The notes below the pieces were generated by a model. The model searched no databases. It was given only the letters and a program-made list of their open reading frames with translations, and was not told where the DNA came from. From an uncultured Gammaproteobacteria bacterium (GTDB lineage Bacteria > Patescibacteriota > Patescibacteriia > SBBC01 > CAIJZX01), in NCBI GenBank assembly GCA_964349465.1, contig CAYGGC010000006.1, positions 1,218-65,217 on the forward strand: 64,000 nucleotides of DNA, given 5' to 3'. Shown in pieces: positions 4,118 through 30,070 of this stretch. A program made the position numbers and the translations under genes. How positions within the stretch are numbered: position 1 is the stretch's first letter; each line of letters starts with the position of its first letter.

Positions 4118-5206
4118 CTAGGCCGCAACTCGAAAGAAGACGACATCACCATCGTGGATGATGTATTCTTTGCCTTCAATCCGGAGTTTTCCGGCCGTTT
4201 TTGCCGCTTCCCATGAGCCCGCGGCGACCAGATCAGGATAGCTGACCACTTCTACTCTAATGAAAGTCTTTTCGAAATCGGTGTGGATAACGCCAGCGGC
4301 TTGGGGAGCTTTTGTTCCGATTGGAACTGTCCAGGCCCGTGTTTCGTCGGCACCGGTCGTCAGGAAGGTGATGAGACCAAGTGTTTGGTAGGCGAGCTGA
4401 ATGAGCCGATCGAGGCCCGAGGCGGCTAACCCGAGCTCGGCGAGATAGGCGGCAGCGTCTTCGGGCGGCAAATCAGCTAACTCCTGCTCAACCTTCACGG
4501 CCACGATGATTGTTTGGTCAGGCGGCAGGTTGAAGTCGCTGGCCTGCGCCGAGGCGAGCTGATTTTCGCTAACATTCACGACGTACAGTAGGGGCTTACT
4601 GGTGAGCAGTGTTAAGGTCTTCACTAATACCAGCTCGTCGTCGGTCAGGCTCATCGTCCGGACCGGATGGCCGGCGCCGAGATGTGCGTGAACTTTTTCG
4701 ACCAAGGTTAATTCAGTTTGCGCGGCTTTATCTAGACCAGCTTTCTTTTGTTTCGTGAGCGTCTCCAGTCGCTTTGTGACTGTGGCGAGGTCAGCCATAG
4801 CCAATTCAATCTCAATCGTGGTGATGTCGGACGTGGGATCGACTTTCCCTGCAACGTGGATAATATTCGGATCCTCAAAAGCGCGAACAACTTCGGCGAT
4901 TGCATCGACCTCACGGATATTGGCTAGAAATTTATTCCCAAGACCTTCTCCTTGGTGAGCGCCGGCCACTAACCCAGCAATGTCGACAAATTCAACGGTT
5001 GTGGCAATAGTTTTTTTCGAGGACTCCTGCCTCGTTAAAACATCGAGCCGTTCATCAGGGACGGGGACAACGCCAACATTTGGATCAATGGTTGCGAATG
5101 GGTAATTCGCTACATCGACCTGCTTTTTGGTCAGGATTTGGAAGAGGGAGGATTTGCCGACGTTGGGGAGGCCGACGATACCGATCGTTTGTTTTGAACC
5201 TGACAT
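4118..5206 (-). CDS. ychF: ribosome-binding ATPase YchF (Obg-family GTPase)
   Basis: Diagnostic N-terminus [14 protein letters not shown] and a C-terminal TGS domain; 362 aa. Confidence 0.9.
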
Positions 5207-6788: not shown

Positions 6789-6793
6789 AAGAT

Positions 6794-6982
6794 TTACCCG
6801 TTTCGGGTTCTCTTCAATAAGTTTTCTTTTTCGGTTTCAGGTATTCGCCAAAGCGCGGTTTTACCCTTCCCTAACTTATATCCTTTCAGTAGGCCAGTTT
6901 TCAGCCATCTCTCAACGGTTCGGGGATGTACCCGAAAGTATTTTGCTACCTCACCTTTAGTAAGAAAATTCATTAAAATCAT
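6794..6982 (-). CDS. excisionase/AlpA-like HTH DNA-binding protein
   Basis: 62-aa protein with a helix-turn-helix (EVAKYFRVHPRTVERWLKTG), immediately upstream of int. Confidence 0.55.
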   Translation of the reverse strand: MILMNFLTKGEVAKYFRVHPRTVERWLKTGLLKGYKLGKGKTALWRIPETEKENLLKRTRNG

Positions 6983-6989
6983 TATATTC

Positions 6990-7202
6990 CTAATTGCTCT
7001 TAGATGTCAAAGTCTCATTCTTGGGGGTTTCAGCTTTTCTCTCCCTTCTTCTAAGCACTTCATCAAACAAAATACTGAAAGCCCGATCTAGTGCTGGTAT
7101 GGCAGACTCACCAAGCTCAACCTGTTGGTAGTTTAGTTTTACCAACATGGGCTTATTGTTGTGTTTTTGTGGTAGCCGCTTATCCATAGCGTAGCCACTC
7201 AA
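6990..7202 (-). CDS. hypothetical protein (island)
   Basis: An ORF with island-like composition that is tightly packed against its neighbours. Confidence 0.3.
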   Translation of the reverse strand: MSGYAMDKRLPQKHNNKPMLVKLNYQQVELGESAIPALDRAFSILFDEVLRRRERKAETPKNETLTSKSN

Positions 7203-7283
7203 TGGTGAGCGACGACGCTACGGTCTTCGTTTTGGGCTAAGTTATTTCGTAACTAGGTCATAAATTTAATGAAAGTATGATTT

Positions 7284-7649
7284 TCATACACTTTTACCAA
7301 GTAGTTCGTCGAGCGCAGAGATGACCCCTTTTGCGTCCATGCCTATAAGCTCGCGCTCACGTTCACGAATGATTTGCTTCAGTTCGCGTTCATTTGCTAT
7401 CGGATAGCCCAGATCGAGGTTACGTGTTGCTTCAATCATTTTCACCAAATCATTGTCCTCCAAAGCTTTTTTTAGAAGTTTCATGCGCCAAGGTCGATAA
7501 TGCCGGCGGATCACCCTAGCGTAGCCATTCGTGTATCTAGCCTTTAGCGCGCTTTGATATGCATTACCGAATGTAGGCGAGGCAATATCAATATATGCCC
7601 GAAGGAAGTCGAACTCTTGAAGGGTAATACTAAACTTCTTATTACTCAT
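7284..7649 (-). CDS. hypothetical protein (island)
   Basis: 121-aa ORF with island-like composition and no recognisable motif. Confidence 0.4.
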   Translation of the reverse strand: MSNKKFSITLQEFDFLRAYIDIASPTFGNAYQSALKARYTNGYARVIRRHYRPWRMKLLKKALEDNDLVKMIEATRNLDLGYPIANERELKQIIRERERELIGMDAKGVISALDELLGKSV

Positions 7650-7753
7650 ATGCTTTCATACCTACAAGGAAAATCAGGGTTATCAAAGTCAATTGTTGTT
7701 TATGAATAGTCATTATCTTTTTGTTATTTATAATTTATCAAACTCCCTGCTAA

Positions 7754-9187
7754 CTATGATATTGGTATAAGGGCCTGTTGCTTTTCTTGCCCGTGCTCTT
7801 CGTCAAAGAGGGAATTTAGTTCGGCTTCAGAAAGTTCGAGTTGATCAGTAGCGCCTAGCTCTACGTTCCTCCACCCCGTTACCTGCACCTTGTTCTTGGT
7901 TAGGGGATTCATTTCTGACTTTTTCCCATCAATAATATAATCGGCATAATTGCGGATTTTTTTGCCTAGATTTTCCATTGTATCGGCAGGAAGGTTTTTA
8001 GAGCGCGCGTATCGGATAAAAGCCTCGTGCATATCCGTCTTACTTATCCACTCCCCAGTAGCCTCTTTGAGACAGTCATGCACAAACTGTGCAATGACAG
8101 AGCCAGAGCGTTGCATCTCCTTTTTAATTTCATGCGGCGCTTTTGTATAGCTGAACCTTTGGTTTTCCAGCAATCGTTTTAACCCCACAAGCGCAAAGTT
8201 TAGTAGCCCGGACAATTCTTCGGGGGTAGAGATTTTGTCGATCAAAAACTTATCCGGGGTAGCTACTTCATTTCTGAAATGAATAATTATCCATCGACCG
8301 AAATATGCGGCATCGTTAGGGTCTTTAACGTCAGGAATTTTATTGCAAGCAAAAGTCAACTTGGCATAGTTCTCAAATTGAAACTGGTCGCCAAATTTAT
8401 ACTCGCCGGTGATGCTACCGCCACCAGTCGCAATCTTAAAAGCCCCGTTGTCGCTAATATCCTTAAATGATAGGTCATCGTAAATGTTTATATGCTTATT
8501 ATAGAAATGAGCAGCCGCGAACTTGTCAGAAGTGACTTTCTGTAAACTCACGCCCGATACGTTCTCTTTTCCAATGAATCTCTCAAAAAGTCTTAGGAGC
8601 GTTGTCTTGCCTGTATCTCCCTCGCCTACAAAAATTATTGCCTTTTTTATGAAATAAGTTCTGTACAGGATGTACCCGAACCACTCCTGAATTAAAGGCA
8701 CGTCTTGCTTGTCCAGTACTTCCAAGAGAAACTTTTTAATCACTGGACAATCAGCATCCCTAACAAAAGAAACGGGGATCTTATGAAAAAATAGATTCTT
8801 CGAATCATGCGCGCTTATTTTGCTGGTTTTAATATCTAATACTTCATTTTCAAGATTTATCAATTCCCTGCCAACCTTAAAATCTTTTCGATCCATTGTT
8901 GTTGAATCTTTAATCTTTTCAATAATCTCGTTTTTGTAGTGCTTACTAACCAACGATCTTAGTATCCTTTGTATTTCTGACCTTATTGAGTTGCCCCCGG
9001 GTACATAAATGCCATTTTTATAAAGATAAATATCGCGTGACTTCTCCCCAATGGTTTTAAGTTGGTATCTGTCGATTAAATAGTCCGCAATGCTTTGCGA
9101 GCCTAAAGATTTATCTGTTAGATAGAGGCTTCTCAGCCCTTCCTCTTCTTGATCTTGTTCGATTATATTTTGTGTTTGAGGACTCAT
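7754..9187 (-). CDS. phage/plasmid primase-helicase (D5_N plus SF3 P-loop NTPase, P4-alpha-like C-terminal domain)
   Basis: Walker A motif VGEGDTGKTT, and an overall sequence like phage-associated D5/P4 primase C-terminal domains. Confidence 0.65.
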   Translation of the reverse strand: MSPQTQNIIEQDQEEEGLRSLYLTDKSLGSQSIADYLIDRYQLKTIGEKSRDIYLYKNGIYVPGGNSIRSEIQRILRSLVSKHYKNEIIEKIKDSTTMDRKDFKVGRELINLENEVLDIKTSKISAHDSKNLFFHKIPVSFVRDADCPVIKKFLLEVLDKQDVPLIQEWFGYILYRTYFIKKAIIFVGEGDTGKTTLLRLFERFIGKENVSGVSLQKVTSDKFAAAHFYNKHINIYDDLSFKDISDNGAFKIATGGGSITGEYKFGDQFQFENYAKLTFACNKIPDVKDPNDAAYFGRWIIIHFRNEVATPDKFLIDKISTPEELSGLLNFALVGLKRLLENQRFSYTKAPHEIKKEMQRSGSVIAQFVHDCLKEATGEWISKTDMHEAFIRYARSKNLPADTMENLGKKIRNYADYIIDGKKSEMNPLTKNKVQVTGWRNVELGATDQLELSEAELNSLFDEEHGQEKQQALIPIS

Positions 9188-9441
9188 ATCTGGACATGTA
9201 AAATCGGATTTTTAAACTTTAAAGTCCAACGTTTTGCGCATCGATCACATACAAATACTATTTCAGATTGTCCACTTTCCTCATCCATTCCCTGAAGACA
9301 AGCCCTGCCGGTACCGACACGGCAATGTGGGCACTTCTGTAGTGCTTCTTTGTTTTCAACATTACCGTCTTGATCCAGCTTGACGACTGTATTGATAACA
9401 ACCTCAGCGTCGAACATTCTTTGATCATTACGTAATTTCAT
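9184..9441 (-). CDS. small zinc-ribbon protein
   Basis: Two CxxC pairs (CPHC...CDRC). It overlaps the primase start by 4 nt, so the two genes are translationally coupled. Confidence 0.5.
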   Translation of the reverse strand: MKLRNDQRMFDAEVVINTVVKLDQDGNVENKEALQKCPHCRVGTGRACLQGMDEESGQSEIVFVCDRCAKRWTLKFKNPILHVQI

Positions 9442-9494
9442 ACCAATGGGGTTATTGTAAGAAAGCCCACTAATGGCTTCACAGGGTCTCTGCT

Positions 9495-9539
9495 GGGTTT
9501 AGAAAGCAAAGCCACTAGCGGGCTTTGCTTTCTAAACCC
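9495..9539. repeat. perfect 19-bp-stem inverted repeat (GGGTTTAGAAAGCAAAGCC-N7-GGCTTTGCTTTCTAAACCC)
   Basis: Seen directly in the sequence. It lies in the divergent intergenic region next to the primase operon. Confidence 0.8.
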
Positions 9540-10021
9540 AGAAAACCGCAATCTCATGATTGCGGTTGCGGTTTTGGTAGCTATTTAAAAAAGGCTACCA
9601 CCGCATCCCACAATGTGAGATGAAATGGTAGCCCCTCAACTTTCCCTCTACCCAGCGGAGCACTTGAGCCCCGACTAATTGTCAATAATGGAATTATAGT
9701 CGATCTGTCTTTAATGTCAATGAGTTTATACACACTTTCGCTTTCTTTCTGTAAAGCGAAATCCAAACTTTAAAAATGTGTTAAAACCTGATATCCTGTA
9801 GCAACAACTTAATAGATCAGATTTGCCTAAACTCTATGGAATTTTCGTAGGGCATGGCAAAAAAATCCACAAGTAGAAACGGTCTTTTTGACCGGGTACT
9901 ACTTGTGGTCTATCTCCGAAAGGGGGTAGGGCGATCGAAAGGTCGCCGCCCGGATTAAGAGACCGTTTTAAGTTGGTCTTCTGCCGGTAAAGAAAAGACT
10001 AAATTCCTAACAGAAGATATT

Positions 10022-10234
10022 ATGGAAAAAGAACCATACAAGCCCACTGTTCTTCCAGCGAAAGAAGATCCGGCGAATCCCGATAACTGGGAATACGATG
10101 CTAATATGCAAGGTTTTCCCGGGCAGGTTTATTCTCGCAAGCTGACAGAAAAACAGAAGGGCTGGATAGTTATTGCAAAGATTACTTTTTGGGGAGTTTT
10201 GGCGTGGACTATCATTAAGTATCTAATTCTATGA
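10022..10234 (+). CDS. small membrane protein
   Basis: 70 aa with a C-terminal transmembrane helix; island cargo. Confidence 0.4.
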   Translation: MEKEPYKPTVLPAKEDPANPDNWEYDANMQGFPGQVYSRKLTEKQKGWIVIAKITFWGVLAWTIIKYLIL

Positions 10235-10440
10235 AAAAACATCTTTACTATTTAGTTGGAATTACAGTCCTAATTTTTGCGATTGGCTATTTGTTTTCAC
10301 AATATATAGCCTACAAGCAGTTTCGCCTATCACAAGAGAAAGCGATACAGGATTGTGTAGAAAAGACTATTGGAACAAATACCGCTGGCTTCATTGCTTC
10401 GAATGCAAAACAAAAGTGTGTGGAAAAGTTTTCCCAATAG
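10231..10440 (+). CDS. small membrane protein
   Basis: 69 aa with an N-terminal transmembrane helix. Its start overlaps the upstream stop (ATGA). Confidence 0.4.
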   Translation: MKKHLYYLVGITVLIFAIGYLFSQYIAYKQFRLSQEKAIQDCVEKTIGTNTAGFIASNAKQKCVEKFSQ

Positions 10441-10586
10441 TTTTTATTGGCTGGAAGGGGTTGCCCCAACGGGCATCCCTGTTAGCGACAAAAAAGTATC
10501 CACAGATACCCTCTTTGTTCGTTTTTGTGGTAAAATAGATTTAGATAAAAATAGGCCAATTTAAATATAAAACTGGGCGATTTATT

Positions 10587-11186
10587 ATGACTACCAACGA
10601 TAGAATCATACGTAGCGCCCTAAAGAAGAAACTACAAGAAACGCACAAAGACGATCCTAAGCTAAGGATCGTTGAGGAGTTGGGCGTTAAACATGGGGCT
10701 GCCAGAGTTGATATTGCTGTTATCAATGGAGTTCTGCATGGTTATGAAATAAAAAGTGATCGGGACACCTTGCTTCGTTTACCTGAACAGATGGCTGCAT
10801 ATAATTCTGTTTTTGATCAAATAACTTTAGTCGTTGGGAAAAGTCATTTGCATGAAGCAATAAATGTTGTTCCGGATTGGTGGGGGATTACGATTGCAAA
10901 GATTGATTCAGCTAACGTCGTTGTTTTTAGCTGTATACGTGAAGCGAAAAAAAACCTTAAGCAAGACACTATTTCCATAGCAAGGCTTTTATGGAAAGAT
11001 GAGGCGCTAGAAATTTTAGAAGAAGCTGGTCAAGCGGATGGAATTCGCTCAAAAACAAGGGGCTTCATATATGAAAGGTTGTCTGAAGCATTCGATCAGA
11101 AGATTCTCCAAGAAAAGGTTAGAAACGTATTATTTTTTAGGGAAGGTTGGAGATCTGATTCGCCACTAGTACTAAATGGTGGTTAA
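10587..11186 (+). CDS. sce7726-family-like protein (PD-(D/E)xK-like motif)
   Basis: The block ELGVKHGAARVDIAVINGVLHGYEIKSDRDTLLRLPEQ matches my recollection of the sce7726 family, which pairs with sce7725/Beta proteins. It has the D..E.K spacing of restriction-like nucleases. Confidence 0.45.
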   Translation: MTTNDRIIRSALKKKLQETHKDDPKLRIVEELGVKHGAARVDIAVINGVLHGYEIKSDRDTLLRLPEQMAAYNSVFDQITLVVGKSHLHEAINVVPDWWGITIAKIDSANVVVFSCIREAKKNLKQDTISIARLLWKDEALEILEEAGQADGIRSKTRGFIYERLSEAFDQKILQEKVRNVLFFREGWRSDSPLVLNGG

Positions 11187-12264
11187 CACCGGCGCGTAAC
11201 CAAGTTCGCGGGCTACCCGTGTTTGGCGTATCAACGTCTTCACCTTTTTCTGCTATGTACGCATCGCCGTAGCTAAAGCCTTTGCCCTTGTACTCTGGCT
11301 GACTCATAAGTAGTTGCGCATGAGAAGGATATTGAGAGTGCCCGGGGCCTTCATTCCCATCCTTGTCTATTTTATGCAGAGCCTCGCCTCGCATGATTAC
11401 CCACTCGCTTTCACCAGAATATCTTATACTAGCGCTCGGATTTGCTTCTGGATTTGGCTCAGTATAGATTGGGTGCTGGATTGTGTAATCAGCAAATGCG
11501 GGTTTTCTTTTTTGTGTTCCCGAATAAATCTCTTTCAACCAGTAAGCCCAATCAGAGCGAGGAATCCTATAAGTGGCGTGTGGGCTAAAGCGAGAAAGGT
11601 CGAAAGGAAATGCCCCCCCAGCGACCGTAAACGTTCTCCATCGTATAAGGTCGGGGATATTATTAATAGATTTAACGATTTTGGAATATTCTTCTTGAGG
11701 CATACCCTCCACGAGTTCAAAGTCGACTAAGAGGTCGACTTGTTCGTGTTTGAGATCATTTCTTTTTATAAACTCATTAATACTTGTAGCAAGCTTATTA
11801 GAAGAGAGATCAGCACGTAGTATTCTCAAGCATACACCACTTTCGTATTGCTTTATTATTTTTATGATCGTGCCTTCAACATCTATATCGCTATTTATCC
11901 GAATAACGGGAATAACTCGAGAGCCGATAGCAGGTCCTTTACTCATGATTTCTGTGTAGCCCCACTTTTGCAGCGCCCCGCTTGTCAGAAGATTAAGGTC
12001 AATGAATATTGGACTATTGCCCCAATACTTCAGTATTTCTTTTGGCAGGTTGGGTAATGTCCCCTTTAACTTCTCAATAGATTGAGTCTTATACTCTTCA
12101 GGAGTTTTTTTGGCCTCCCCCCTTTTTAATCTTTTACGGGCGGGCATTATTAACTCTAGTAAAGGCGTGATTATTAGCCTGTCTTTTTCAGTAAGCTCTT
12201 TTAAGGCCTCTTTTTCAGCGGTTTTCCACCGCAATATTGGTACGTAGTGTTTTGCGTCAAACAT
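11137..12264 (-). CDS. Beta-protein family (sce7725-like) protein
   Basis: The N-terminus HYVPILRWKTAEKEALKEL...ITPLLEL matches my recollection of the Beta_protein/sce7725 family. The ATG overlaps the stop of the upstream HTH-ImmA gene. Confidence 0.5.
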   Translation of the reverse strand: MFDAKHYVPILRWKTAEKEALKELTEKDRLIITPLLELIMPARKRLKRGEAKKTPEEYKTQSIEKLKGTLPNLPKEILKYWGNSPIFIDLNLLTSGALQKWGYTEIMSKGPAIGSRVIPVIRINSDIDVEGTIIKIIKQYESGVCLRILRADLSSNKLATSINEFIKRNDLKHEQVDLLVDFELVEGMPQEEYSKIVKSINNIPDLIRWRTFTVAGGAFPFDLSRFSPHATYRIPRSDWAYWLKEIYSGTQKRKPAFADYTIQHPIYTEPNPEANPSASIRYSGESEWVIMRGEALHKIDKDGNEGPGHSQYPSHAQLLMSQPEYKGKGFSYGDAYIAEKGEDVDTPNTGSPRTWLRAGVNHHLVLVANQISNLP

Positions 12265-12265
12265 A

Positions 12266-13495
12266 TTATTTAGTAGGCCATTTAATATCTTGGAAATAAT
12301 CTCTAACTTTTGCCGCATTTGTAATCGCATTTAAGTTTGGAGATTGATAGCGCTTATGTTTATGCATCATTATTCCAGTAACAATAGCCACGTTAATCCC
12401 AAGCTCATCGGCTAAACTTTGTGCCGCAACTGGTGAGGGTACTCTTTTTGCAGGACTTTTTTCCCATTTGTCATTAGGTAGCAGAGCTTCTCCTGCTAGC
12501 ATGTCTGCCTCGGTTTCCTTCGTATCAATCTCCGCGCCCCCTACCCCTTCAATCTCATCGTAGAATAGGTTGATATTTTTATCGAAGTGCAAGGCAATGT
12601 GAGCCAGTTCATGCATTAAAGTAAACCAAAAGTTATCTAGTCGATCATATCTAACTGTTAGACCAATGACAGGGTTATCTTTATTTATTAAGATTGTTGC
12701 CCCATCTAAATAGGTTTTAGTTAAATGAGGCGCAATAACAAGTTTAATCCCAAACTTTGTTAAGTATTGTTGAGCCACAATAGGGCTTTTTTCTTTCGTA
12801 CTTAACTTTGCCATTTCTCTCATAAAAGCTAGATTTACAGCTCCATTCTTGTATTTAACTGGAACCTTCACCTCCTCAGATTTTTTTAAGATATATTCAG
12901 ACCATGCCGCAAGCGCGCGTTTGTCAGTTAAAAGAGAAGATCGATAATGAGATTGTCGTGGCATTCCGGCAAGTTGGAACTCAGGGCCGATAACTGAAAA
13001 GAAGTTTCTTAGTAGTTTTTCTTTATTTGAGACATCTAATCTACCTCGCCCAAAGTAACCACGTTCTGACATTTCTCTAATTACGCGAGTATCCCAGCCA
13101 CTATAAAGCGCGTTTTCGCTTTGGTCAGGTTTTTTGAGAAGAACTTTCGCCGGAATACCTAAGCCGGCCTCCAATAATCTAATCATGTCGAGTGTAAGCG
13201 TTCTTTTTCCAGAAAGAATTTCTGATACTCTACTTCTGCTACCTAGATAGGGGATTAGATCGGCAGGTGTCAAATCCGCTTGCTCCATTCGGAATTTAAT
13301 GGCTTCGACAGGATCGGGGAGTGTTGCAGAAAAAGCTTTAGCTTCGTAGTCAGCTACAAGAGTACTTAGAATACTAAGTTGTTCTCCTTCTTGTGATTCA
13401 GGATCAGGATCACCAGCCATAAGCGCCTCAATAAATTCGAGCGCTTCTTGGTAGTCTCTTTCAGTTCTTATTACTTTAATGTCAGGCATGGTCAT
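12266..13495 (-). CDS. HigA-type HTH antitoxin fused to an ImmA/IrrE-family zinc metallopeptidase
   Basis: The N-terminal ~120 aa look like HigA (IKFRMEQADLTPADL...SRVSEILSGKRTLTLDMIRLLEAGLGIP). The C-terminus has the HEXXH motif HELAHIALH. Confidence 0.75.
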   Translation of the reverse strand: MTMPDIKVIRTERDYQEALEFIEALMAGDPDPESQEGEQLSILSTLVADYEAKAFSATLPDPVEAIKFRMEQADLTPADLIPYLGSRSRVSEILSGKRTLTLDMIRLLEAGLGIPAKVLLKKPDQSENALYSGWDTRVIREMSERGYFGRGRLDVSNKEKLLRNFFSVIGPEFQLAGMPRQSHYRSSLLTDKRALAAWSEYILKKSEEVKVPVKYKNGAVNLAFMREMAKLSTKEKSPIVAQQYLTKFGIKLVIAPHLTKTYLDGATILINKDNPVIGLTVRYDRLDNFWFTLMHELAHIALHFDKNINLFYDEIEGVGGAEIDTKETEADMLAGEALLPNDKWEKSPAKRVPSPVAAQSLADELGINVAIVTGIMMHKHKRYQSPNLNAITNAAKVRDYFQDIKWPTK

Positions 13496-13500
13496 ATTGG

Positions 13501-13788
13501 CTATTTAATTTGCCACTTGTCGTATTCTTTATGGGTACCAACTTTTTTGATAAGCACCACCCCAGTCTTATAAGCGATTCTCACCCATATCCGATACTTG
13601 TTCCAGCAAATGTCGAAGATTGCTTGTAGGTTGCCCGGTAGGCTAACCCGGGGGTATTTATTTCGGACATCTTGAGGTGTTTTCCATTCAGCAGCCTCGA
13701 CTTCTGCCTCCCAAGATTCGAGCTGCGATCTGGCATCAGCATGCTCTTCCCCAAAATCGCGCAGTTGTTGTTTTCCTAGTAAGTTCAT
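13501..13788 (-). CDS. higB: type II toxin HigB (RelE/ParE fold)
   Basis: LRDFGEEHADARSQLESWEAEVEAAEWKTPQDVRNKYP...ICWNKYRIWVRI...VGTHKEYDK matches the HigB toxin family. The gene is trimmed to the internal Met (MNLLGKQQL). Confidence 0.75.
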   Translation of the reverse strand: MNLLGKQQLRDFGEEHADARSQLESWEAEVEAAEWKTPQDVRNKYPRVSLPGNLQAIFDICWNKYRIWVRIAYKTGVVLIKKVGTHKEYDKWQIK

Positions 13789-14253
13789 GATACGTAGTAG
13801 TGGAGTAGTGTACATTAAGACCGTTCCCATGGTGGGAACGATACCAAATGTACAAAGTATTGTCAATAGCCCCGTAATTGGGGGTGTGTGGGCATAGTCG
13901 GGGAACCTTTTTACGAGTATATACCCTCTAAAAAGAATCCCATTTTTTGGACTGGGGGTCATTCTACAGGCACTGATCGTACGATTCTGCCCTGTAGGCT
14001 ACGGCTCACGATGGCGCGCTCATAGCGAGGCGCAGGGAGCCTTATGGTAAAGGCGAAGGGTATCAGTTTTGCCGATGTATCGGCATGGTCATGTCGTGCT
14101 GTACTCGAACCATGCCGATTTTGAATGACATAGAGGCCCCGATGGTAGCATGGGGTTGACGAAGACTCAAGAGAGGAGTATCGATAGAGAGGACGGACCC
14201 CCCGGCTCGTCTTCGTCCCTTTCGTTCGCGTCCCTATTTCCAAGGAGCTGGAA

Positions 14254-22661: not shown

Positions 22662-23264
22662 TCAGCAGCCGCCGAGGCCGAGCGTGATGAGCATCAGAAT
22701 GACGTAGATCACGACGTAGGTGGTTCGCTCGTTCCGGATCGAGAACGAGTATTCGTTGCGGCGATCGTCGAGATCCTTGGGAAACAGCACGTATTTCCTG
22801 GTCTTGGTCTTGTCCGGGCCCTCGGTTTCTTCGGCGAGGATCCGGCGGGGGATGAAGTTCTGCCCCCAAATCCAGAGGAAGACGCAGGTGAACACTGTCA
22901 TGAAGATCAAAGCCAGGCTGAGTCGGATGGCCTGCACGCCAAGAACTTTGAAGGCGACGATCCACATCGTGAATGTTCCGACCTTGGTGTTGGCGAACTT
23001 GTTGGCGTTGTCGGTGATGGCCGACAACGAACCGTTCACGGCTTCACCGACTTCCTTGCCGAGGCCGGCATACTTGCCGACCTGCTGGACCTGATCCGCC
23101 ACCTGGGTCACCTGTTCGACCGTCTGGGCGGCTTTGACCTTGGCCATTTGCTCGGGAGTGAGCAGTGACTTGTCGACGACGACCTTGTTGGCGTCCTGCG
23201 CGAAAGCAGCCGTCGTGACGGTCAGGAGCGTGACGGCGACCAGAGCGATTCTCGTCAGCTTCAT
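22662..23264 (-). CDS. exported membrane-anchored hypothetical protein (GC3-outlier gene)
   Basis: It has a signal peptide (MKLTRIALVAVTLL) and C-terminal transmembrane helices, with GGAGG upstream. The ORF is trimmed from a 429-aa antisense read-through. Its codon bias is extremely GC3-rich. Confidence 0.6.
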   Translation of the reverse strand: MKLTRIALVAVTLLTVTTAAFAQDANKVVVDKSLLTPEQMAKVKAAQTVEQVTQVADQVQQVGKYAGLGKEVGEAVNGSLSAITDNANKFANTKVGTFTMWIVAFKVLGVQAIRLSLALIFMTVFTCVFLWIWGQNFIPRRILAEETEGPDKTKTRKYVLFPKDLDDRRNEYSFSIRNERTTYVVIYVILMLITLGLGGC

Positions 23265-23489
23265 AGAAAGAGCCTCCTGGGAAGAGTTCCGGATCCTTAT
23301 CCGGAACGGGTGGACAACGTTCTGACCGAAGTTCCCTACCTTCGTCAGACCAAGTCTTTTACCAAAAAACCCGTGAAATGTCAAGGCGAATGAACAAAAA
23401 AGGCATACATATGCTATTCTATTGGTGTAACTCGGTTCGACTAACAAGATAGAGCCCAAACCACCGAACCGGCGAAAATCACATTTTTC

Positions 23490-24047
23490 ATGATCCAACC
23501 AGACGAAGAATTGGTGGCGGCGGCCCAAACCGGAGATCATACAGCTCTGTCGACGTTGTATGACCGGCATTTTACCCAGTTGTACCGCTTTATCTACCGC
23601 CACGTGAACCATGTTCATGATGCGGAAGATCTGGCGAGCGACGTTATGCTCCGCATGGTCACCCATCTGCCATCCTATCAACGCCAGTCCTCGTTTACGA
23701 CCTGGCTTTACGGTATCGCGCGCCACGCCATCGCCGATTTTTGGCGCAAGCACTACCGCGTGCGCGAACAACTCGTGGCGGATTATGCCGCGATTGGGGC
23801 GACAGGGGAGCCGGTTGATATCGTGCCGATGACCGAACATGATCCGGCGGAACAACTGCGCCGACAAGCCGCGGATGTTTTTGAGCAGCTGCCCGCGAAT
23901 TATCGCCTCGTCCTGCAACACCGCTTCATCGACCAGCAAACGCTCGAACAAACCGCGTCAGCAATGCAAACCACAGTTGGAAACGTCAAAGTCCTACAAC
24001 ATCGCGCACTAAAAAAAGCCGCCGAAATCGCCAAACATATCGTCTAA
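23490..24047 (+). CDS. ECF-type RNA polymerase sigma factor (sigma-70 regions 2 and 4)
   Basis: Region 2 (DLASDVMLRMV...FTTWLYGIARHAIADFWRK) and region 4 (LVLQHRFIDQQTLEQTASAMQTTVGNVKVLQHRA). Confidence 0.8.
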   Translation: MIQPDEELVAAAQTGDHTALSTLYDRHFTQLYRFIYRHVNHVHDAEDLASDVMLRMVTHLPSYQRQSSFTTWLYGIARHAIADFWRKHYRVREQLVADYAAIGATGEPVDIVPMTEHDPAEQLRRQAADVFEQLPANYRLVLQHRFIDQQTLEQTASAMQTTVGNVKVLQHRALKKAAEIAKHIV

Positions 24048-24051
24048 CCGT

Positions 24052-27000
24052 ATGAGTCAATCACCACAACGCAACCCGATCGATCAGACCGACGACTACC
24101 TTGAATGGCTCGCCGGCCGCGGTGAGAAAGAGCCGCAGCTTGATCCGGCCGACGAGGATATTTTGAAAGCGACTCGCCTGCTCGGGACGTTGCGTGAACA
24201 TGATCCGCGACCAGCGCTGATTCCAAAAATTAAACACGCGGTCCTCGCCACTTCACAGCATGTACCGACAACGCCTATGCCAAAACCACATCGGTTTACC
24301 GGATTACTGCTTTGGAAAATAGCTTCGCCAGCTGTAGCTGTAGCGGTTGTGGTTGTGACGGTGCTTCTGTCGCAAGCCGCGCCAGCTGAAAATCATGCCG
24401 GAACCAATTTTAAGAAAAAGACCGTTACCCCAGCGGTCGCCGCTGTGGTTGATCTAGTAGCGACAAAAGAAGATGTGCTTGGGGTTGATGCCACCACCTC
24501 CTTTACCCTAACGGCGAAAGAGGGGAAAGTGACGCTGGCTGAGGTGGAAAAAAACTTTGCTCTGCAACCGGCCGTCGAGTTCTTGGTTAGTCAAAAAGAT
24601 GACGCGACGTTCGAGGTGGCACCAAAAGAAGCGTTGAAACCCGGGACCGTCTATGCGGCCAGCTACACGGCCGAACCGGTTGAGGTGGACGGGGTTGTTC
24701 AGCCTCGTTCATATTCTTGGGCGTATCAGGTCCGCAGCGATTTTAAGATTATTGGGCTGTTACCGCGCCACCAGGCCACCGGTGTAAGCCTGAGCTCTGG
24801 TATTGAGGTCACTTTTTCTTCCGCCGGCGTCACAGCGGATGATTTCCAAAAAAACTTTTCAATTTTTCCAGAGACACTGGGACGAGTTGAGGTTCATCAA
24901 CGGACGCTGGTTTTTATTCCGGCCAAACCTCTCGCCGAAAAGACCGTCTATACCGTCACGGTGAAAAAAGGCCTACGCCCACCGCAGGCGGAAACGGGTC
25001 TCGGGGCCGACGAAACGTTTCAATTTGAAACAACCGTAAAAAACGAAAAAGATTCGGAGACCTTTTACTCGTCCTTCTTCCCGAGTCAGCTGTTTGAAAC
25101 CGTCCGGCCGAATGAACCGTTAGTTTTTGGGGCGGGTAATAATCCCTATGCTGGGGGCGCGAAACCGAGCGCTTCAGAATTCACGATCTACCAATACAAA
25201 GATTTACCAACGTTCATTTCAGCCATCAAAGCTCAAGAGGCGACCCGAAGTATGTGGGCGATCTATGGCTCAAGAGGTGGAACGCACGCAGTTGATGGCC
25301 TCAAGAAGGTCGGTGTCTATAAAACTTCCTCTAAAGATGATGTCCTGACGCTCGGGCCAGGTTTTAGCAAAGGTTTTTATATTGCGGACGGTGGTACCGG
25401 TACTTCTCGTGCCCAAATTCCTTTCGTCGTGTCCACAATTGGATCGTATAGCATGACCACGAAGACCGATGCATTGGTCTGGGCCCATGATTTAGAAACA
25501 AAAAAACCGTTAACCGGCGCAACACTCACAATCCCAGGTACTGAGGTGACGGTGACGTTGGGGGCTGATGGCGTCGCGCGTTTCCCAACGCCGTTTACGG
25601 CCGACGACGGGGCCTACATGCCAGCCATTGCGGTCCTGACTACTGGTCAAGTGGAGTCGCCGGTGCTGTTGAATGGTACGCAATATAGTGGCTTTGGATT
25701 CAAGCGATACCAAGCCAGCACCGATTTTTGGAGCTACCTATCGCTGGATCGAAGTTTGTATCAACCAACCGACACCGTCCAGTTCTGGGGGCTTCTTCGC
25801 CGCCGCGACCAACCTCGACCCGGCGAGACGATTACCGCTCGACTTGTTCAGCGCACATTTGATAGTCGGTACGAGGAACAAACCATCGCTGAAACAACGT
25901 TGACGACAAGCACCAGCGGGACGTTTATTGGCTCTCTTGCCTTGCGTGGTGTTCCGACGAACGTCAGTACCGTTCTTGAAATTTCCATCGATGGACAGAC
26001 TGTGCTCGAACGGTATTTGAATATTGAAACGTACCGCAAGCCACCGTTTCAAATCATCATCCAACCCGATCAGTATGCAGTTTTGGCAGGCGAGACTGTG
26101 ACGTATACCATCTCGACAAAATTTTTCGATGGGACGCCAGTGCCAAATACGGAATTGCGTGAGGCCTATGGGGCCGGGACAGGTAAGGGGATTGTGACCA
26201 CCAATGCGCGAGGCGAGGCGACCCTCAAGCGTAAACTCGAGCTCAATAGCGGATCCTTGGCACTGGAGCCAACTGACGCGCAACTCCAAACCATTACGGG
26301 CAGTTCCTATGTGCAGGTCTATCCGGCCGCGGTGGAGATGGTCACCTCGACGACCTTAACTGGTACAACCGGAACACTGACGGGAACGGTCTACGAAGTT
26401 CAGCCTGAGAATATTACGCCGAGCACGACCGATATTTTTGCTGACTTGCGTGGGCCCGCTAAGCCAAACCAAGTTATCGCCGGATCGTTGAAGGAAATTA
26501 TCTATGATAAAGTCAAAACCGGTTCTCATTATGATTTTCTCCTGAAGGAAACGGTTGATGATTACCAATATAACAACCGTGAAGAGGAGCGAGAAGCGTT
26601 TAGTCTTACATCTGCAGCTAATGGCACCTTCACAAAAACATTTACCTTGGGCGCAAAGAGTATCTATCGTGTTGATCTGACAACCAAGGATGATAAAGAC
26701 CGCGAAGCTGTTACGAGTGGGTATTTCTGGCGATCAGAATACAATAACATCTATAATCAAAGCCAGTATTCATTAACTGATGTAGTTCAACGAGATGGGA
26801 GCGCAGCGCCGACGTATGGAGTCGGTGCTGAAGTGACACTCGAATTGAATCGGGGTGGTGATGTTGCCGCGGTGCCGACTGAAGGGTCAATTCTCTATAC
26901 ACTGAGCCAGCGTGGGTTACGGCGTTATACGGTTTCAACCTCCTCAAAATTCTCCTTTACATTTGGTGAGGCAGATACACCATCGATCAGCTCACGAGCA

Positions 27001-29190
27001 GTCATTTTTACCGGGACCGGATATGCTGAAGCAATTGGTCCAACGACGGTGATTGATCGTACGACGCGAGCGCTGACGATTGATCTCAAAACCGATAAGC
27101 CAACGTATAACCCTGGTGACCGTGTTCAGGTTTCGATTACGACGACTGACCCAAATGGTCGGGGGCAGGCGGCTCGCGTGAACCTCAAAGCTGTTGACGA
27201 GGCTTTACTCAGCTTGGCTTCGGCCGAAGATAGTTATTACGTACCGGGAAACATTTATAATCAGGTTGATGATGGGGTTCTCGGGAGCTATATCAGTCAC
27301 CAAGCTATTGAAAGTCGGGCCATGGCCGAAGGCGGCGGCGGCGGAGGGGATCGGGTTGATTTTAAAGACACCGCGGTCTTTACCGAAGTAACGACCGACG
27401 CGCAAGGTAAAGGGGTTTTCAGCTTTACGCTACCAGATAATTTGACTACCTGGAGACTGACCGCTCAAGGATTTACCGACGGCCTGCTTGCTGGCACAAC
27501 CCAATCTCCATTAGTGGTGTCCAAAGATCTATTCGTCGCGGTGCTGACCGAACCAGATCAAGTGAGTCGCGATAAGACGAGCGTTAGTGCTAGTGCATTT
27601 GGACGAAGCCTGACCGCGACGGATGAAGTTACCTATACTTTCTCCGTGCTTGACCAATCAGGTTCAGAGAAAGTGACTAAAGGAAAAGCTTTTGTCAGTA
27701 TTCTCTATCGCTTGCCGGAGCTGGCACCCGGTTCATATCGTGTTCGCGTGATGGCTGAAGCGAAAGGGCTAAAAGACGTCGTTGAGTTGCCAATTACGGT
27801 CTCCGCCTCCCGCCTACAGCGTCGGACGGTTAAGTCGGTTATGCTCCCGAGTGCGACACTGCCAACCTACAGTTCAACCGGGCGAACAGTCTTTCGATTT
27901 GATGACGCCGACCGAAACTTGGCGTATGAGACGCTGTGGAGTCTCGTCGGCGCAACGCATAATCGGCTCGATGATGTTGTCGCGAGCGAACTGGCTCAAC
28001 AGGTATTAGAAACCTCGATGAAAGAATCGATTGGGGGGGAGCCAAGTACCGTCCAACAATTTTTGACCGGTAAAGGTTTAGCGCTGTACCCGATTGGTAG
28101 CGAAAATCTTGAAGCCGGAGCGTTAGCCGCCGGCGCTGAAAGCTTCGTGGGCGCGCGCGAACAACTGCTGACCTGGTTCCGCACAACGCTTGATGATCCA
28201 AAGCAGAATACCGAACAGGTCACGCAAGCTCTGTACGGCTTGGCTCAGCTCGGTGAACCAGTCTTGCCAGAAATTCGAGCGCTCTTGGCTCAACAAGATG
28301 TGCCGGAACGTGATCAGATTACGTTGTTGTTAGCGCTGGAGACGCTTGGAGCCAGCGAAGAAGCTCGGCCTCGAACCCTCACGCTGCTCCAAAAATACGC
28401 CGAGTCTCAAGATCAGTATGTTCGGATACATCTAGGCGAATCTGATGACGAAAAAATTGTTAACAGCGCGCGATTCGCGATTTTGGCGGCTGGACTTGGA
28501 CTTGATGAGCGTTACGGATTACTTCGCTATGTTAACGCGTACCAACCGAAGGACACGCGGACAACCCTCGAACGGGCTCTAGCCACACAAACCTTGCTCC
28601 AACATACCTCAGCCACGACGGCGACCGTGACCTATGACTTTGATGGGAAAACCGCGACGGCGACGTTGACGGCTAACCAGCCACTCCTTCTTTCTGCCGA
28701 CCCAGTCCAGGTGAAGACGTTGGCGATTCAGAAAACGACCGGTCGGGTTTCCGTCCTCTCAACCTACCAAGAGCCGTTTGACATTACCACGGCCTCCCGC
28801 GAAGCACGACTCTCGTTAACGCGAACCTATCTGGTGAACGGAAAAAAGACGACGACCTTTGCGGTCGGGGATCTCGTCAGAGTTCAATTTACCTGGTCAA
28901 AAAAATCCGACGTGGTCGGTAAAAATTTCTCGATCACCGATCTTCTCCCAACCGGGCTACGCCCAGTCAGCAATCCGTGGGCCTACGACCGTTCCAATCT
29001 GCAAAACGCGCCCTACGCGATCGCGGGCCAACGAGTCAGTCTCTACGCCGGTGAAAAAAACTCCACCTTCTACTACTTAGCCCGAGCCAGCGCGCCAGGA
29101 CAGGCCGTGGCCGAGCCAGCGATTCTGCAGGCTTTCGATGCGCCAAGCAGTATTCAATACAGTAATGAAGCGGTGGTTGAAATTAAATAA
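24052..29190 (+). CDS. giant membrane protein: N-terminal anti-sigma-like cytoplasmic segment plus TM, fused to an alpha-2-macroglobulin-family ectodomain (thioester-less)
   Basis: It starts 4 nt after the sigma gene. About 75 cytoplasmic aa precede one transmembrane helix. The A2M hallmark block DRVDFKDTAVFTEV...FSFTLPDNLTTWRLTAQG and a TED-like region follow, with no CxEQ motif. Confidence 0.6.
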   Translation: MSQSPQRNPIDQTDDYLEWLAGRGEKEPQLDPADEDILKATRLLGTLREHDPRPALIPKIKHAVLATSQHVPTTPMPKPHRFTGLLLWKIASPAVAVAVVVVTVLLSQAAPAENHAGTNFKKKTVTPAVAAVVDLVATKEDVLGVDATTSFTLTAKEGKVTLAEVEKNFALQPAVEFLVSQKDDATFEVAPKEALKPGTVYAASYTAEPVEVDGVVQPRSYSWAYQVRSDFKIIGLLPRHQATGVSLSSGIEVTFSSAGVTADDFQKNFSIFPETLGRVEVHQRTLVFIPAKPLAEKTVYTVTVKKGLRPPQAETGLGADETFQFETTVKNEKDSETFYSSFFPSQLFETVRPNEPLVFGAGNNPYAGGAKPSASEFTIYQYKDLPTFISAIKAQEATRSMWAIYGSRGGTHAVDGLKKVGVYKTSSKDDVLTLGPGFSKGFYIADGGTGTSRAQIPFVVSTIGSYSMTTKTDALVWAHDLETKKPLTGATLTIPGTEVTVTLGADGVARFPTPFTADDGAYMPAIAVLTTGQVESPVLLNGTQYSGFGFKRYQASTDFWSYLSLDRSLYQPTDTVQFWGLLRRRDQPRPGETITARLVQRTFDSRYEEQTIAETTLTTSTSGTFIGSLALRGVPTNVSTVLEISIDGQTVLERYLNIETYRKPPFQIIIQPDQYAVLAGETVTYTISTKFFDGTPVPNTELREAYGAGTGKGIVTTNARGEATLKRKLELNSGSLALEPTDAQLQTITGSSYVQVYPAAVEMVTSTTLTGTTGTLTGTVYEVQPENITPSTTDIFADLRGPAKPNQVIAGSLKEIIYDKVKTGSHYDFLLKETVDDYQYNNREEEREAFSLTSAANGTFTKTFTLGAKSIYRVDLTTKDDKDREAVTSGYFWRSEYNNIYNQSQYSLTDVVQRDGSAAPTYGVGAEVTLELNRGGDVAAVPTEGSILYTLSQRGLRRYTVSTSSKFSFTFGEADTPSISSRAVIFTGTGYAEAIGPTTVIDRTTRALTIDLKTDKPTYNPGDRVQVSITTTDPNGRGQAARVNLKAVDEALLSLASAEDSYYVPGNIYNQVDDGVLGSYISHQAIESRAMAEGGGGGGDRVDFKDTAVFTEVTTDAQGKGVFSFTLPDNLTTWRLTAQGFTDGLLAGTTQSPLVVSKDLFVAVLTEPDQVSRDKTSVSASAFGRSLTATDEVTYTFSVLDQSGSEKVTKGKAFVSILYRLPELAPGSYRVRVMAEAKGLKDVVELPITVSASRLQRRTVKSVMLPSATLPTYSSTGRTVFRFDDADRNLAYETLWSLVGATHNRLDDVVASELAQQVLETSMKESIGGEPSTVQQFLTGKGLALYPIGSENLEAGALAAGAESFVGAREQLLTWFRTTLDDPKQNTEQVTQALYGLAQLGEPVLPEIRALLAQQDVPERDQITLLLALETLGASEEARPRTLTLLQKYAESQDQYVRIHLGESDDEKIVNSARFAILAAGLGLDERYGLLRYVNAYQPKDTRTTLERALATQTLLQHTSATTATVTYDFDGKTATATLTANQPLLLSADPVQVKTLAIQKTTGRVSVLSTYQEPFDITTASREARLSLTRTYLVNGKKTTTFAVGDLVRVQFTWSKKSDVVGKNFSITDLLPTGLRPVSNPWAYDRSNLQNAPYAIAGQRVSLYAGEKNSTFYYLARASAPGQAVAEPAILQAFDAPSSIQYSNEAVVEIK

Positions 29191-30070
29191 GATCGTCACG
29201 ATCTGGCTCATTGCCGGTAGCGCGGCCGCCGTCACAACGGCGGCCGCGCTTCGTCTCGATCGTCCAGACGCCGGACGCGAATTGGGTGAGTCAACCGCGT
29301 GGCGCGTGCCGGACAGTACGACAGCGGAGCTGACCCAAGCGTTTGCTGCGGCCAAACCATGGACTGATTTCTCTAACCGCGCTGTTCAGGCGGGTATTTT
29401 GCCGCACCATGGCCTCGTTGGTTCCCTGATGGCCGGGTGGGTTATGGGCGTACGAGCGCAACCAGCGCCACAGACAGTCGTGATACTTGGACCAGATCAT
29501 CACAACGCCGGCCGGGGCTATATGACGTCGGCGATGGTTGATTGGCAAACGCCGGATGGAGTGGTCGGGGTTGATCGGGCACTGGTCTCGACCTTGATGG
29601 AAAAGAATATGGTCGTTAATGATCCCGAATTGATTCAAGTTGAGCACGGAGTGTATACAGCGATTCCGTATATCCATCGCGCGTGGCCAGCGGCGAAGGT
29701 TGTGACAATCGCGATCAAAGGGGATGCCCGGCCAGATTGGATCGCGACATTGGCCGAGGAACTCGATCGCGCGCTCGGGCCGAATGACCTGGTCATAGCT
29801 ACGGTCGATTTTTCGCACTATACGACTGCGATTGATGCCTTACGAGCCGATGAAGAATCAGTCGCGGTTATTCGACGTGGCGACGTTGACGCGGCGCTGC
29901 GATTGCCCGTTGATTCACCGCCCGCAATTTCACTGATACTTGAATACGCCAAACGGCGATCGTTGGTTTATCGCCAGATCGCGCATACCACCTCGGCGCA
30001 ATTCACTGGGCAACTCGATGCCCAGTCGACGACCTCATATCTCTCAGCCTATTTCACTGCGGCGAAGTAA
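29165..30070 (+). CDS. MEMO1/AmmeMemoRadiSam-system-protein-B-like protein with N-terminal signal/TM
   Basis: The AGILPHHG...ILGPDHHNAG...FSHY motifs of the Memo family are present. Its start overlaps the end of the A2M gene. Confidence 0.65.
   Translation: MKRWLKLNKIVTIWLIAGSAAAVTTAAALRLDRPDAGRELGESTAWRVPDSTTAELTQAFAAAKPWTDFSNRAVQAGILPHHGLVGSLMAGWVMGVRAQPAPQTVVILGPDHHNAGRGYMTSAMVDWQTPDGVVGVDRALVSTLMEKNMVVNDPELIQVEHGVYTAIPYIHRAWPAAKVVTIAIKGDARPDWIATLAEELDRALGPNDLVIATVDFSHYTTAIDALRADEESVAVIRRGDVDAALRLPVDSPPAISLILEYAKRRSLVYRQIAHTTSAQFTGQLDAQSTTSYLSAYFTAAK

Follow-up and report, generated by a model that had tools for sequence, protein, structure and literature searches.

The 64,000-nucleotide (nt) stretch of contig CAYGGC010000006.1 analyzed in this work, hereafter the window, carries on its forward strand a unit of three genes, which encode, in this order, a sigma factor of the extracytoplasmic function (ECF) type, a giant alpha-2-macroglobulin (A2M) protein with a transmembrane (TM) helix near its N-terminus, and a Memo-like membrane-anchored protein (Table 1). 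Between the sigma stop codon and the start of the giant open reading frame (ORF) lie 4 nt, a spacing that had been claimed in a first-pass annotation of this DNA and was borne out by the ORF coordinates, and the Memo-like gene begins before the A2M gene ends. That annotation had read the first two genes as a sigma factor and its anti-sigma factor, the latter fused to a protease-trapping ectodomain whose cleavage would release the sigma factor.

Domain architecture of the sigma factor and the A2M protein

The sigma factor matched Sigma70_r2 (3e-18, amino acids (aa) 23–90) and Sigma70_r4_2 (3.8e-9, aa 127–176) as its only real Pfam matches, and scored 92.9 bits against a cut-off of 42.9 with the NCBIfam model TIGR02937 (sigma70-ECF), so that the ECF assignment of the first-pass annotation was upheld by mapping with hidden Markov models. 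Its size and domain content are those of ECF group 4, which comprises proteins of ~160–220 aa with the sigma-2 and sigma-4 regions only. The cognate regulator encoded alongside, a further hallmark of ECF sigma factors, was also found, and this pairing is kept in the orthologues and in other clades.

Pfam searches of the A2M protein identified the domains A2M (aa 1107–1178, 1e-9), A2M_BRD (aa 921–1055), Big_5 (aa 231–327) and bMG10 (aa 1588–1696), with MG2 (aa 562–631) falling just below its Pfam cut-off, and the hallmark block DRVDFKDTAVFTEV...LPDNLTTWRLTAQG is located at aa 1100–1140. The whole protein gave no match in the PDB when used as a single sequence, and a family profile was needed: a profile of 33 family members matched E. 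coli YfhM (ECAM) and Salmonella A2M at 1e-22, and further TEP1, human A2M, C5 and CD109, and placed the C-terminal region with MG10 opposite ECAM residues 1306–1607, in an alignment that does not extend to the thioester position of ECAM. An AlphaFold2 (AF2) model of the ectodomain (aa 560–1712), built with 28 homologues and having a mean predicted local distance difference test score (pLDDT) of 82.9, was compared with the PDB by Foldseek; the best matches were native ECAM (5a42; E 1e-44, TM-score 0.58) and Salmonella A2M (4u48; E 4e-42, TM-score ~0.57), and the next ones, all at E < 1e-33, were C3/C4, A2ML1, CD109, TEP1 and C5. The chain of macroglobulin (MG) domains, the bait-region domain and the MG10 domain by which the A2M superfamily is defined were all present according to Pfam, AF2 and Foldseek, and the A2M assignment thus holds in profile, structure-prediction and fold searches. 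The helical region that the first-pass annotation had likened to a thioester domain (TED) was recovered as well, as AF2 helices spanning model residues 727–959 (aa 1286–1518), after which the chain ends in a beta-sandwich.

The A2M protein has zero cysteines, and consequently neither a CXEQ thioester, which is missing despite the TED-like domain, nor a lipobox. Cysteine is lacking in the homologues P0001–P0015 too, and CXEQ was found in 0/38 of the closer relatives (P0001–P0038), being confined to distant matches. At the bait position, between A2M_BRD and the A2M domain, the model contains a loop of 37 residues without secondary structure (model residues 511–547), which holds a run of six glycines and in which aa 1080–1103 (model residues 521–544) have a pLDDT < 50. 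Across the family, the first half of this loop is variable, and its GAE-GGGGG..R-x-DF part, including R1101, is conserved. In the model, the loop is a putative bait, canonical in its position and partial in its variability.

One hydrophobic segment only was detected in the A2M protein, at ~aa 82–112 (Kyte-Doolittle window ≥1.6), and AF2 predicts there a TM helix (pLDDT ~90) that is preceded by three short helices (aa 9–20, 32–49 and 56–68). From this single-helix arrangement we infer that the N-terminus is cytoplasmic and the remainder outside; with this sidedness, the protein has the layout of single-pass anti-sigma factors, namely a cytoplasmic N-terminus, one TM helix and an extracytoplasmic C-terminus. 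Of the about 75 cytoplasmic residues and one TM helix described in the first-pass annotation, the single helix stands and the length is corrected to about 80. The N-terminal domain is marked by the motif D-x-Y-L-E-[FW]-L-A-G-R ... DEDIL-x-A-x-x-L-L-x-x-L-R ... P-x-P-x-F-x-x-x-L-K, and E18, L20, A21, G22, R23, A40, L44 and Pro93 of the TM helix are invariant in 16 full-length orthologues with 43–67% overall identity. Proline enrichment of the TM helix was considered as a sign of intramembrane proteolysis and set aside, the difference between coupled (12/16) and uncoupled (23/56) members being a weak hint.

Two additional domain types were observed among the A2M relatives. Hint/intein-like domains (PF07591, PF14623, PF13403 and PF14890, from precomputed Pfam data) occur in some family members of ~1750–1870 aa (P0018, P0026, P0028–P0030, P0112, P0113, P0116, P0119, P0121, P0124, P0128–P0130 and P0132), which suggests that part of the A2M family might undergo autoproteolytic processing. 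Type I dockerin domains (PF00404) are present on P0086–P0090 and P0095, one of them a protein of Acetivibrio clariflavus named as dockerin-containing, and these relatives may be cellulosome-attached macroglobulins.

Recurrence of the sigma–A2M pairing and of the Memo-like partner

Whether ECF sigma genes commonly lie upstream of A2M genes in related genomes was a question raised by the first-pass annotation, and the survey showed that the pairing recurs. In the clade of the window itself, a sigma gene followed by an A2M gene was found in 12 further loci (L001, L002/L003, L007 and L084–L091), with A2M identities as low as 43%. The two genes usually overlap in an ATGA, and the flanking genes are shuffled; phosphoglucomutase, for example, is encoded upstream in some loci and downstream in others. 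Four loci were returned by a metagenome scan with the N-terminal alignment. By scanning species-representative genomes with the motif LPDNLT[ST]WR, 582 relatives were obtained, of which the best 80 loci, derived from Dehalococcoidia, Chloroflexia, Clostridia, Peptococcaceae, Actinomycetota and many Patescibacteria, were analyzed. These relatives form a family of N-terminally membrane-anchored A2Ms.

A sigma gene lies directly upstream of the A2M gene in 15 of the 68 usable loci, and when every ORF of all loci was searched by jackhmmer with the window sigma factor, sigma genes turned up solely at this position; their ECF identity was confirmed by Pfam in 10 other loci. Stop/start overlaps of 4 or 8 nt between the sigma and A2M genes are the rule in the coupled loci. 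The presence of the sigma gene went along with the length of the A2M N-terminus: the TM helix starts at residue 57–125 in all 15 sigma-coupled loci (15/15), and before residue 50, mostly within the first 30 residues, in 46/53 sigma-less ones. One Dehalococcoidia locus cut by a contig end (L005) is also coupled, since the remaining 125 nt upstream encode a sigma-4 C-terminus, and its N-terminus resembles the type found in the window. Otherwise, the N-terminal extensions of coupled members fall into several sequence types that have no detectable mutual similarity. In a neighbour-joining tree of the ectodomains, the coupled members were distributed over at least 7 separate clades and interleaved with uncoupled ones.

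Three observations were made beside this survey. P0047, a soluble protein of 137 aa without a TM helix, has an N-terminus like those of L005 and the window (LD..IDAILAGR...DPDL...LRDLPDPAFKRRLKAQL), followed by a C-terminal region that is glyoxalase/VOC-like as judged from sequence alone, which hints that the N-terminal module might be used in other architectures. The loci L002 and L090, both from assembly GCA_040960375.1, are distinct sigma–A2M–Memo loci whose A2Ms are 67% and 46% identical to that of the window, and reflect either a mixed bin or two copies of the system per genome. In L035 (3667–8516; Candidatus Uhrbacteria GW2011_GWC2_41_11), an ECF sigma gene is present and tblastn matched the A2M at 4001–8509 with no long ORF under translation table 11, which may result from frameshifts, a pseudogene or another genetic code.

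A canonical version of the architecture was identified in Bacillota. The N-terminal extension of the A2M protein at locus L039 matched zf-HC2, the zinc-binding anti-sigma (ZAS) domain, with 29.6 bits against a cut-off of 22.2. A search with this protein returned 22 protein clusters with 41–53% identity, all of which begin with MNCKEI...H-x3-C-x2-C, and precomputed annotation assigned PF13490 to 18/22 of them along with A2M domains; more distant L039 relatives open directly with a signal anchor. Both ZAS clusters whose loci were examined (L092 and L093) have an ECF sigma gene upstream with a 4-nt overlap. Thus, the same zinc-binding domain (C-x...H-x3-C-x2-C) as in ZAS class I is joined via one TM helix to A2Ms of the same subfamily in at least 22 Bacillota clusters, whereas the N-terminus of the window protein consists of three short helices without Cys or His zinc ligands and lacks the H-x3-C-x2-C signature of that domain. 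This indicates that the architecture of an ECF sigma factor followed by an anti-sigma domain, a TM helix and an A2M is real and widespread, with the window protein as a version whose cytoplasmic part is non-canonical. The sigma/anti-sigma reading of the first-pass annotation is therefore strongly supported by the conservation of the pairing, its link with the N-terminal extension and the zf-HC2 clade, while for the window N-terminus itself such a role is suggested by its context.

The Memo-like protein was identified by Pfam Memo (1.1e-18) and NCBIfam TIGR04336 (1.9e-27; 96 bits, cut-off 26), and is anchored by a hydrophobic segment at its N-terminus, IVTIWLIAGSAAAVTTAAAL. In 54 of the 72 loci with sufficient downstream DNA, the A2M gene is immediately followed by a gene for a homologue, mostly with a 4-nt overlap, and this pairing spans Bacillota, Chloroflexota, Actinomycetota and Patescibacteria, that is, all phyla sampled. 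The core module is hence the A2M with its Memo-like protein, to which the sigma factor and the cytoplasmic domain are an add-on in roughly a fifth of the loci.

Bacterial A2Ms described so far are of two types, both periplasmic and from Gram-negative bacteria, with a debated role and no known link to gene regulation (PMC5764988). Type I A2Ms are lipoproteins of diderm bacteria with a CXEQ thioester, and their gene lies beside that of PBP1c (pbpC) (PMC5764988). ECAM and the Salmonella protein (Sa-A2M), the best structural matches of the window aa 560–1712, belong to this type and share with the window protein the MG chain, the bait-region domain, the TED, the C-terminal MG10 domain and anchoring to the cytoplasmic membrane, whereas the window protein is free of cysteine, has as its anchor an N-terminal TM helix that follows an 80-aa cytoplasmic domain, and is encoded between an ECF sigma gene and a Memo-like gene. 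With no thioester, no lipobox and no pbpC neighbour, it was not assigned to Type I. MagD of Pseudomonas aeruginosa (YfaS class, Type II) is a thioester-less periplasmic protein whose bait is cleaved and which traps the protease non-covalently; it is encoded in the six-gene magABCDEF operon and depends on its operon partners (PMC5764988). As a functional precedent for a trap without a thioester, MagD comes closest, but it has neither a cytoplasmic domain nor a sigma factor, is found in Gram-negative bacteria rather than in Patescibacteria, Bacillota, Chloroflexota and Actinomycetota, and does not share the Memo-like protein that is the conserved partner of the window family. Type II membership was accordingly rejected as well, on operon context and carriers and in spite of the missing thioester. 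The A2M and its Memo-like partner together look like a bacterial A2M system of a third type that has yet to be described. A full-text literature search for Memo together with A2M returned unrelated topics only, as judged by title and abstract.

Upstream regions and genomic surroundings

The leaders of the window and of L001, L002, L007 and L084–L091 were compared. Upstream of the sigma gene, an extended −10-like element appears as TGCTAYNCT in 10/12 orthologous loci, mostly preceded by a T-run, and between it and the conserved block that follows lie 6 to 12 nt, a variable spacing that would suit a −10 element with the transcript start behind it. That block, GTAAC-N6-CGAC, was found in 12/12 orthologous leaders, and the window contains a single copy of it; its spacing is wrong for an ECF promoter. 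A 5′-proximal hairpin, opened by this block, formed in 8/8 leaders folded, with arms that vary compensatorily (CGGTTCG/CGAACCG in the window and CGGTCCG/CGGACCG in L084). Rfam had no match for the conserved leader, and RNAalifold, run on an automatic and length-variable alignment, gave nothing. As read from the sequences, the lineage of the window looks to have a putative housekeeping-type promoter and a structured 5′ leader, the latter possibly a regulatory or stabilising element of the sigma operon.

A different picture was obtained for relatives of other clades. The pattern GTAACTTT-N12-RCGTT is found once in each of 5 Clostridial-type coupled loci, 55–70 nt upstream of the sigma start, and is absent elsewhere in 91 loci; with its AAC-N16-CGT layout, it is predicted to be an ECF promoter of textbook form. 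The motif GAAC-N18-GTCTAA stands ahead of the sigma gene in the ZAS clade, and the same motif, as TGGAAC-N17-CGTCTAA, lies just upstream of the A2M gene in 7 Bacillota loci without an adjoining sigma gene (Table 1). A looser pattern of the motif was found in 21/70 operon-upstream windows compared with 34/770 control windows (odds ratio 9.3, p = 1e-10), and 20 of the 21 motif-bearing windows are from Bacillota-type loci, the exception, L008, being probably a chance match. By these motifs, A2M operons appear to be frequent ECF targets in Bacillota: the sigma-less operons are probably controlled by an ECF sigma factor encoded elsewhere, and those that include the sigma gene look autoregulated.

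In the window, LGT, SHMT, FolD, phosphoglucomutase, a class I (Trp/Tyr-type) tRNA synthetase, RNase J, UvrA, UvrC and GroEL are encoded around the unit, and such housekeeping neighbours identify the window as ordinary chromosome. The closest named relative of the A2M protein, with 45% identity, is annotated as Candidatus Kerfeldbacteria (Patescibacteria). No second candidate anti-sigma gene adjoins the sigma gene in the window or in the orthologous loci. On the minus strand, an ORF of 429 aa (22662–23951) was rejected as a full-length gene, as it overlaps the sigma gene; a part of it (22662–23264), divergent from the sigma gene, looks genuine, starting with MKLTRIALVAV after an upstream AGGAGG and encoding 200 aa with a signal peptide (MKLTRIALVAVTLLTVTTAAFA) and C-terminal hydrophobic segments, for which a Pfam search had no match. 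The G+C content is ~41% at window positions 6001–14000 and ~52% elsewhere in the window, and this region may be a horizontally acquired island.

Table 1. Features of the sigma–A2M–Memo unit in the window, and ECF-type promoter motifs in related loci
Feature	Position	Strand	Remarks
Extended −10-like promoter element TGCTATTCT (TGnTAnnnT)	23412..23420	+	upstream of sigma gene
Conserved leader	23427..23472	+	GTAAC-N6-CGACTAA 23427-23444; hairpin arms 23432-23439 / 23465-23472
ECF (group 4) sigma-70 family sigma factor	23490..24047	+	185 aa; TAA stop at 24045-24047
Giant A2M ORF	24052-29190	+	1712 aa; ATG at 24052
N-terminal cytoplasmic domain, putative anti-sigma (aa 1-80 of A2M protein)	24052..24291	+	
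Single transmembrane helix (aa 81-109), invariant Pro93	24292..24378	+	Kyte-Doolittle, AF2
Extracytoplasmic thioester-less A2M ectodomain (aa 110-1712) and stop codon	24379..29190	+	
Disordered loop at canonical bait position (aa 1070-1106, ...SHQAIESRAMAEGGGGGGDRVDF...)	27259..27369	+	AF2
TED-like alpha-helical domain without thioester (aa 1286-1518)	27907..28605	+	AF2
Memo-like membrane-anchored protein, AmmeMemoRadiSam system protein B family	29165..30070	+	third gene of the unit
TGGAAC-N17-CGTCTAA sites in Bacillota loci without adjoining sigma gene	L016 3846-3873, L025 3719-3746, L036 3941-3968, L056 3724-3751, L067 3909-3936, L074 3481-3508, L083 3768-3795		

A proposed protease-responsive switch and its alternatives

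Single-pass anti-sigma factors that are co-transcribed with an autoregulated ECF sigma factor are exemplified by RsiV/SigV of Bacillus subtilis, which senses lysozyme, RsiW/SigW and RseA/SigE. RsiV binds the attacking enzyme with its own extracytoplasmic domain, and the sigma factor is released by regulated proteolysis; this logic of a sensor that binds the threat is the closest analogue of the window system. The ectodomains of RsiV, RsiW and RseA are, in contrast, ~100–200 aa long and not neutralising effectors, and none is known to have an A2M fold; nor can the N-terminus of the window protein be recognised as belonging to the same class of anti-sigma domain. The RsgI/SigI systems of cellulolytic Clostridia combine a conserved cytoplasmic module with varied large extracellular sensors, but they differ from the window in their SigI sigma family, RsgI_N domain and carbohydrate-binding ectodomains, with no macroglobulin known among them. 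In the library searched, full-text queries found no paper linking A2M to anti-sigma factors or ECF sigma factors, co-mentions being judged by title and abstract, and none was returned on bacterial A2Ms of Gram-positives. What is new is a putative ECF switch whose sensor/effector domain is new and which builds on an A2M system of a new bacterial type; the sigma factor itself is an ordinary ECF one.

We propose that the three genes form one unit, in which the inner 80 aa of the A2M protein act as the anti-sigma factor and protease attack on the ectodomain frees the sigma factor, a proposal to which we give an even chance. The anti-sigma role of aa 1–80 is putative and is inferred from their co-occurrence with the upstream sigma gene. 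At rest, the N-terminal three-helix domain would sequester the sigma factor at the membrane. Extracellular proteases would cut the bait-position loop or otherwise degrade the ectodomain, by which the A2M would be consumed, and the remaining membrane stub would then be cleared by membrane proteolysis, as in RsiW, RsiV and RseA, setting the sigma factor free. The freed sigma factor would drive its regulon, which in the Bacillota relatives appears to include its own operon, so that trap and anti-sigma would be replenished, and the response would end once intact A2M/anti-sigma builds up again. A protease trigger for sigma release is plausible. More tentatively, and with the balance tilting slightly to the negative, the A2M may be a self-reporting, single-use protease trap, which is effector and anti-sigma factor at the same time and of which each consumed molecule would free one sigma factor for its replacement. 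A component of this same tentative idea, held at the same strength, is that the sensor/trap fusion, given its origin in at least 7 A2M clades with unrelated cytoplasmic domains, could be a general and repeatedly reinvented design in wall-exposed bacteria, both monoderms and those of the candidate phyla radiation (CPR).

Several results weigh against the proposed protease-responsive switch, and they concern the anti-sigma domain, the trigger and the regulation. Residues 1–80 had no match in Pfam even at E up to 10, nor in the PDB, either by sequence-profile search or by Foldseek with an AF2 model. In hhalign comparisons, the window N-terminus aligned to those of the Clostridial type with its pre-TM P-x-P-x-F motif alone (probability 8.7%) and to the ZAS N-terminus without significance (E 0.28). 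Its profile returned only P0047, the soluble VOC-like protein with a similar N-terminus, from 5.8 billion proteins, and phmmer against 1.84 billion representatives returned its own clade and a spurious repeat protein only. The first-pass annotation had named a lack of similarity to anti-sigma domains joined with a pairing unique to this genome as the outcome that would speak against it: the similarity is indeed lacking, and the pairing recurs. The association between sigma presence and a long N-terminal extension (Fisher p = 3.8e-10) was calculated without phylogenetic correction and so ignores kinship, and 7 sigma-less loci have maximal ORFs with 57–102 residues ahead of the TM helix, most of which look like low-complexity tails or over-extended ORFs. 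For the trigger, the bait-position loop lies ~970 residues away from the membrane, so a single cut there would not by itself yield a substrate of a site-2 protease and a simple link from cleavage to release needs extra steps. This loop is also partly conserved in its GAE-GGGGG run and not hypervariable, no gene for a protease, a site-1 protease or a site-2 protease was found in the neighbourhood of the A2M gene, and the missing thioester bears on a trigger by bait cleavage, for which non-covalent trapping is plausible given the precedent of MagD (PMC5764988). Regarding regulation, no ECF-type −35/−10 pair was found upstream of the sigma gene in the window lineage, and autoregulation is unproven there because the conserved element looks housekeeping-type.

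The main rival is a genuine sigma/anti-sigma pair with an A2M-fold sensor that responds to another envelope signal than a foreign protease, such as wall damage, failed assembly, a dedicated endogenous protease or, in episymbiotic Patescibacteria, contact with the host cell; here the A2M would be a conformational scaffold and the Memo-like partner would be involved. All of the pairing evidence applies to it equally. The family-wide GAE-GGGGG..R-x-DF segment is more easily explained as a hinge or as a site of specific processing than as a bait open to many proteases, and the absent thioester, the Memo-like partner directly downstream in 54/72 loci and a closest named relative from Candidatus Kerfeldbacteria are in line with it as well. 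Yet the full A2M architecture is kept, from the bait-region domain and the disordered loop to the TED-like and MG10 domains, and MagD, the sole bacterial A2M without a thioester that has been tested, does trap protease once its bait is cut (PMC5764988). Moreover, the same module is present in free-living Clostridia and Dehalococcoidia, so that a role in host contact cannot be general. On balance we consider this rival unlikely, though a serious competitor.

Two other explanations dispense with the signal altogether or with the anti-sigma function. That the first 80 residues do not constitute an anti-sigma domain is a minor rival and, in our judgement, improbable: the sigma factor would transcribe, or merely be co-transcribed with, the A2M and Memo-like genes and be controlled otherwise, and the cytoplasmic tail would serve membrane insertion, localisation or stability. 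It is favoured by the lack of resemblance between the window N-terminus and any known anti-sigma domain, by the restriction of this N-terminal type to its own clade, L005 and the soluble P0047, and by the Bacillota A2M operons that are ECF targets even without an adjoining sigma gene, which means that adjacency could reflect regulator–target linkage alone. Against this, the extension occurs in 15/15 sigma-adjacent genes and is essentially lacking in the sigma-less ones, it is of several unrelated types of which one is canonical zf-HC2, the 4- or 8-nt stop/start overlaps are typical of stoichiometric sigma/anti-sigma pairs, and no other candidate anti-sigma gene lies beside the sigma gene. Still less credible, and in our view very improbable, is a constitutive tether that holds sigma and A2M in a fixed 1:1 ratio at the membrane, with turnover setting a basal sigma level and with no trigger. 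Translational coupling, the housekeeping-type promoter of the window lineage and the fact that no trigger has been identified agree with such a tether, but the architecture arose independently in at least 7 clades with differing N-terminal domains, a repeated origin that favours a sensory link under selection over passive tethering. In addition, to our knowledge, all single-pass anti-sigma factors studied (RseA, RsiW, RsiV and RsgI) respond to signals.

With regard to the biology of the family, these A2Ms, being large, membrane-anchored and thioester-less and having a Memo-like partner of their own, constitute a third bacterial A2M family, and their repeated fusion to anti-sigma domains would turn a defence protein into a sensor. 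If the tentative reading as a self-reporting trap is true, the window protein would be the first of the A2M family, in any organism, shown to transduce a signal across the membrane. Should the protease trigger be confirmed, the detection of proteolytic attack by bacteria without an outer membrane would become directly testable, and the unit would provide a modular protease-responsive transcription switch. For the genome-reduced CPR bacteria, which have very few regulators, a dedicated sigma factor points to an important stimulus.

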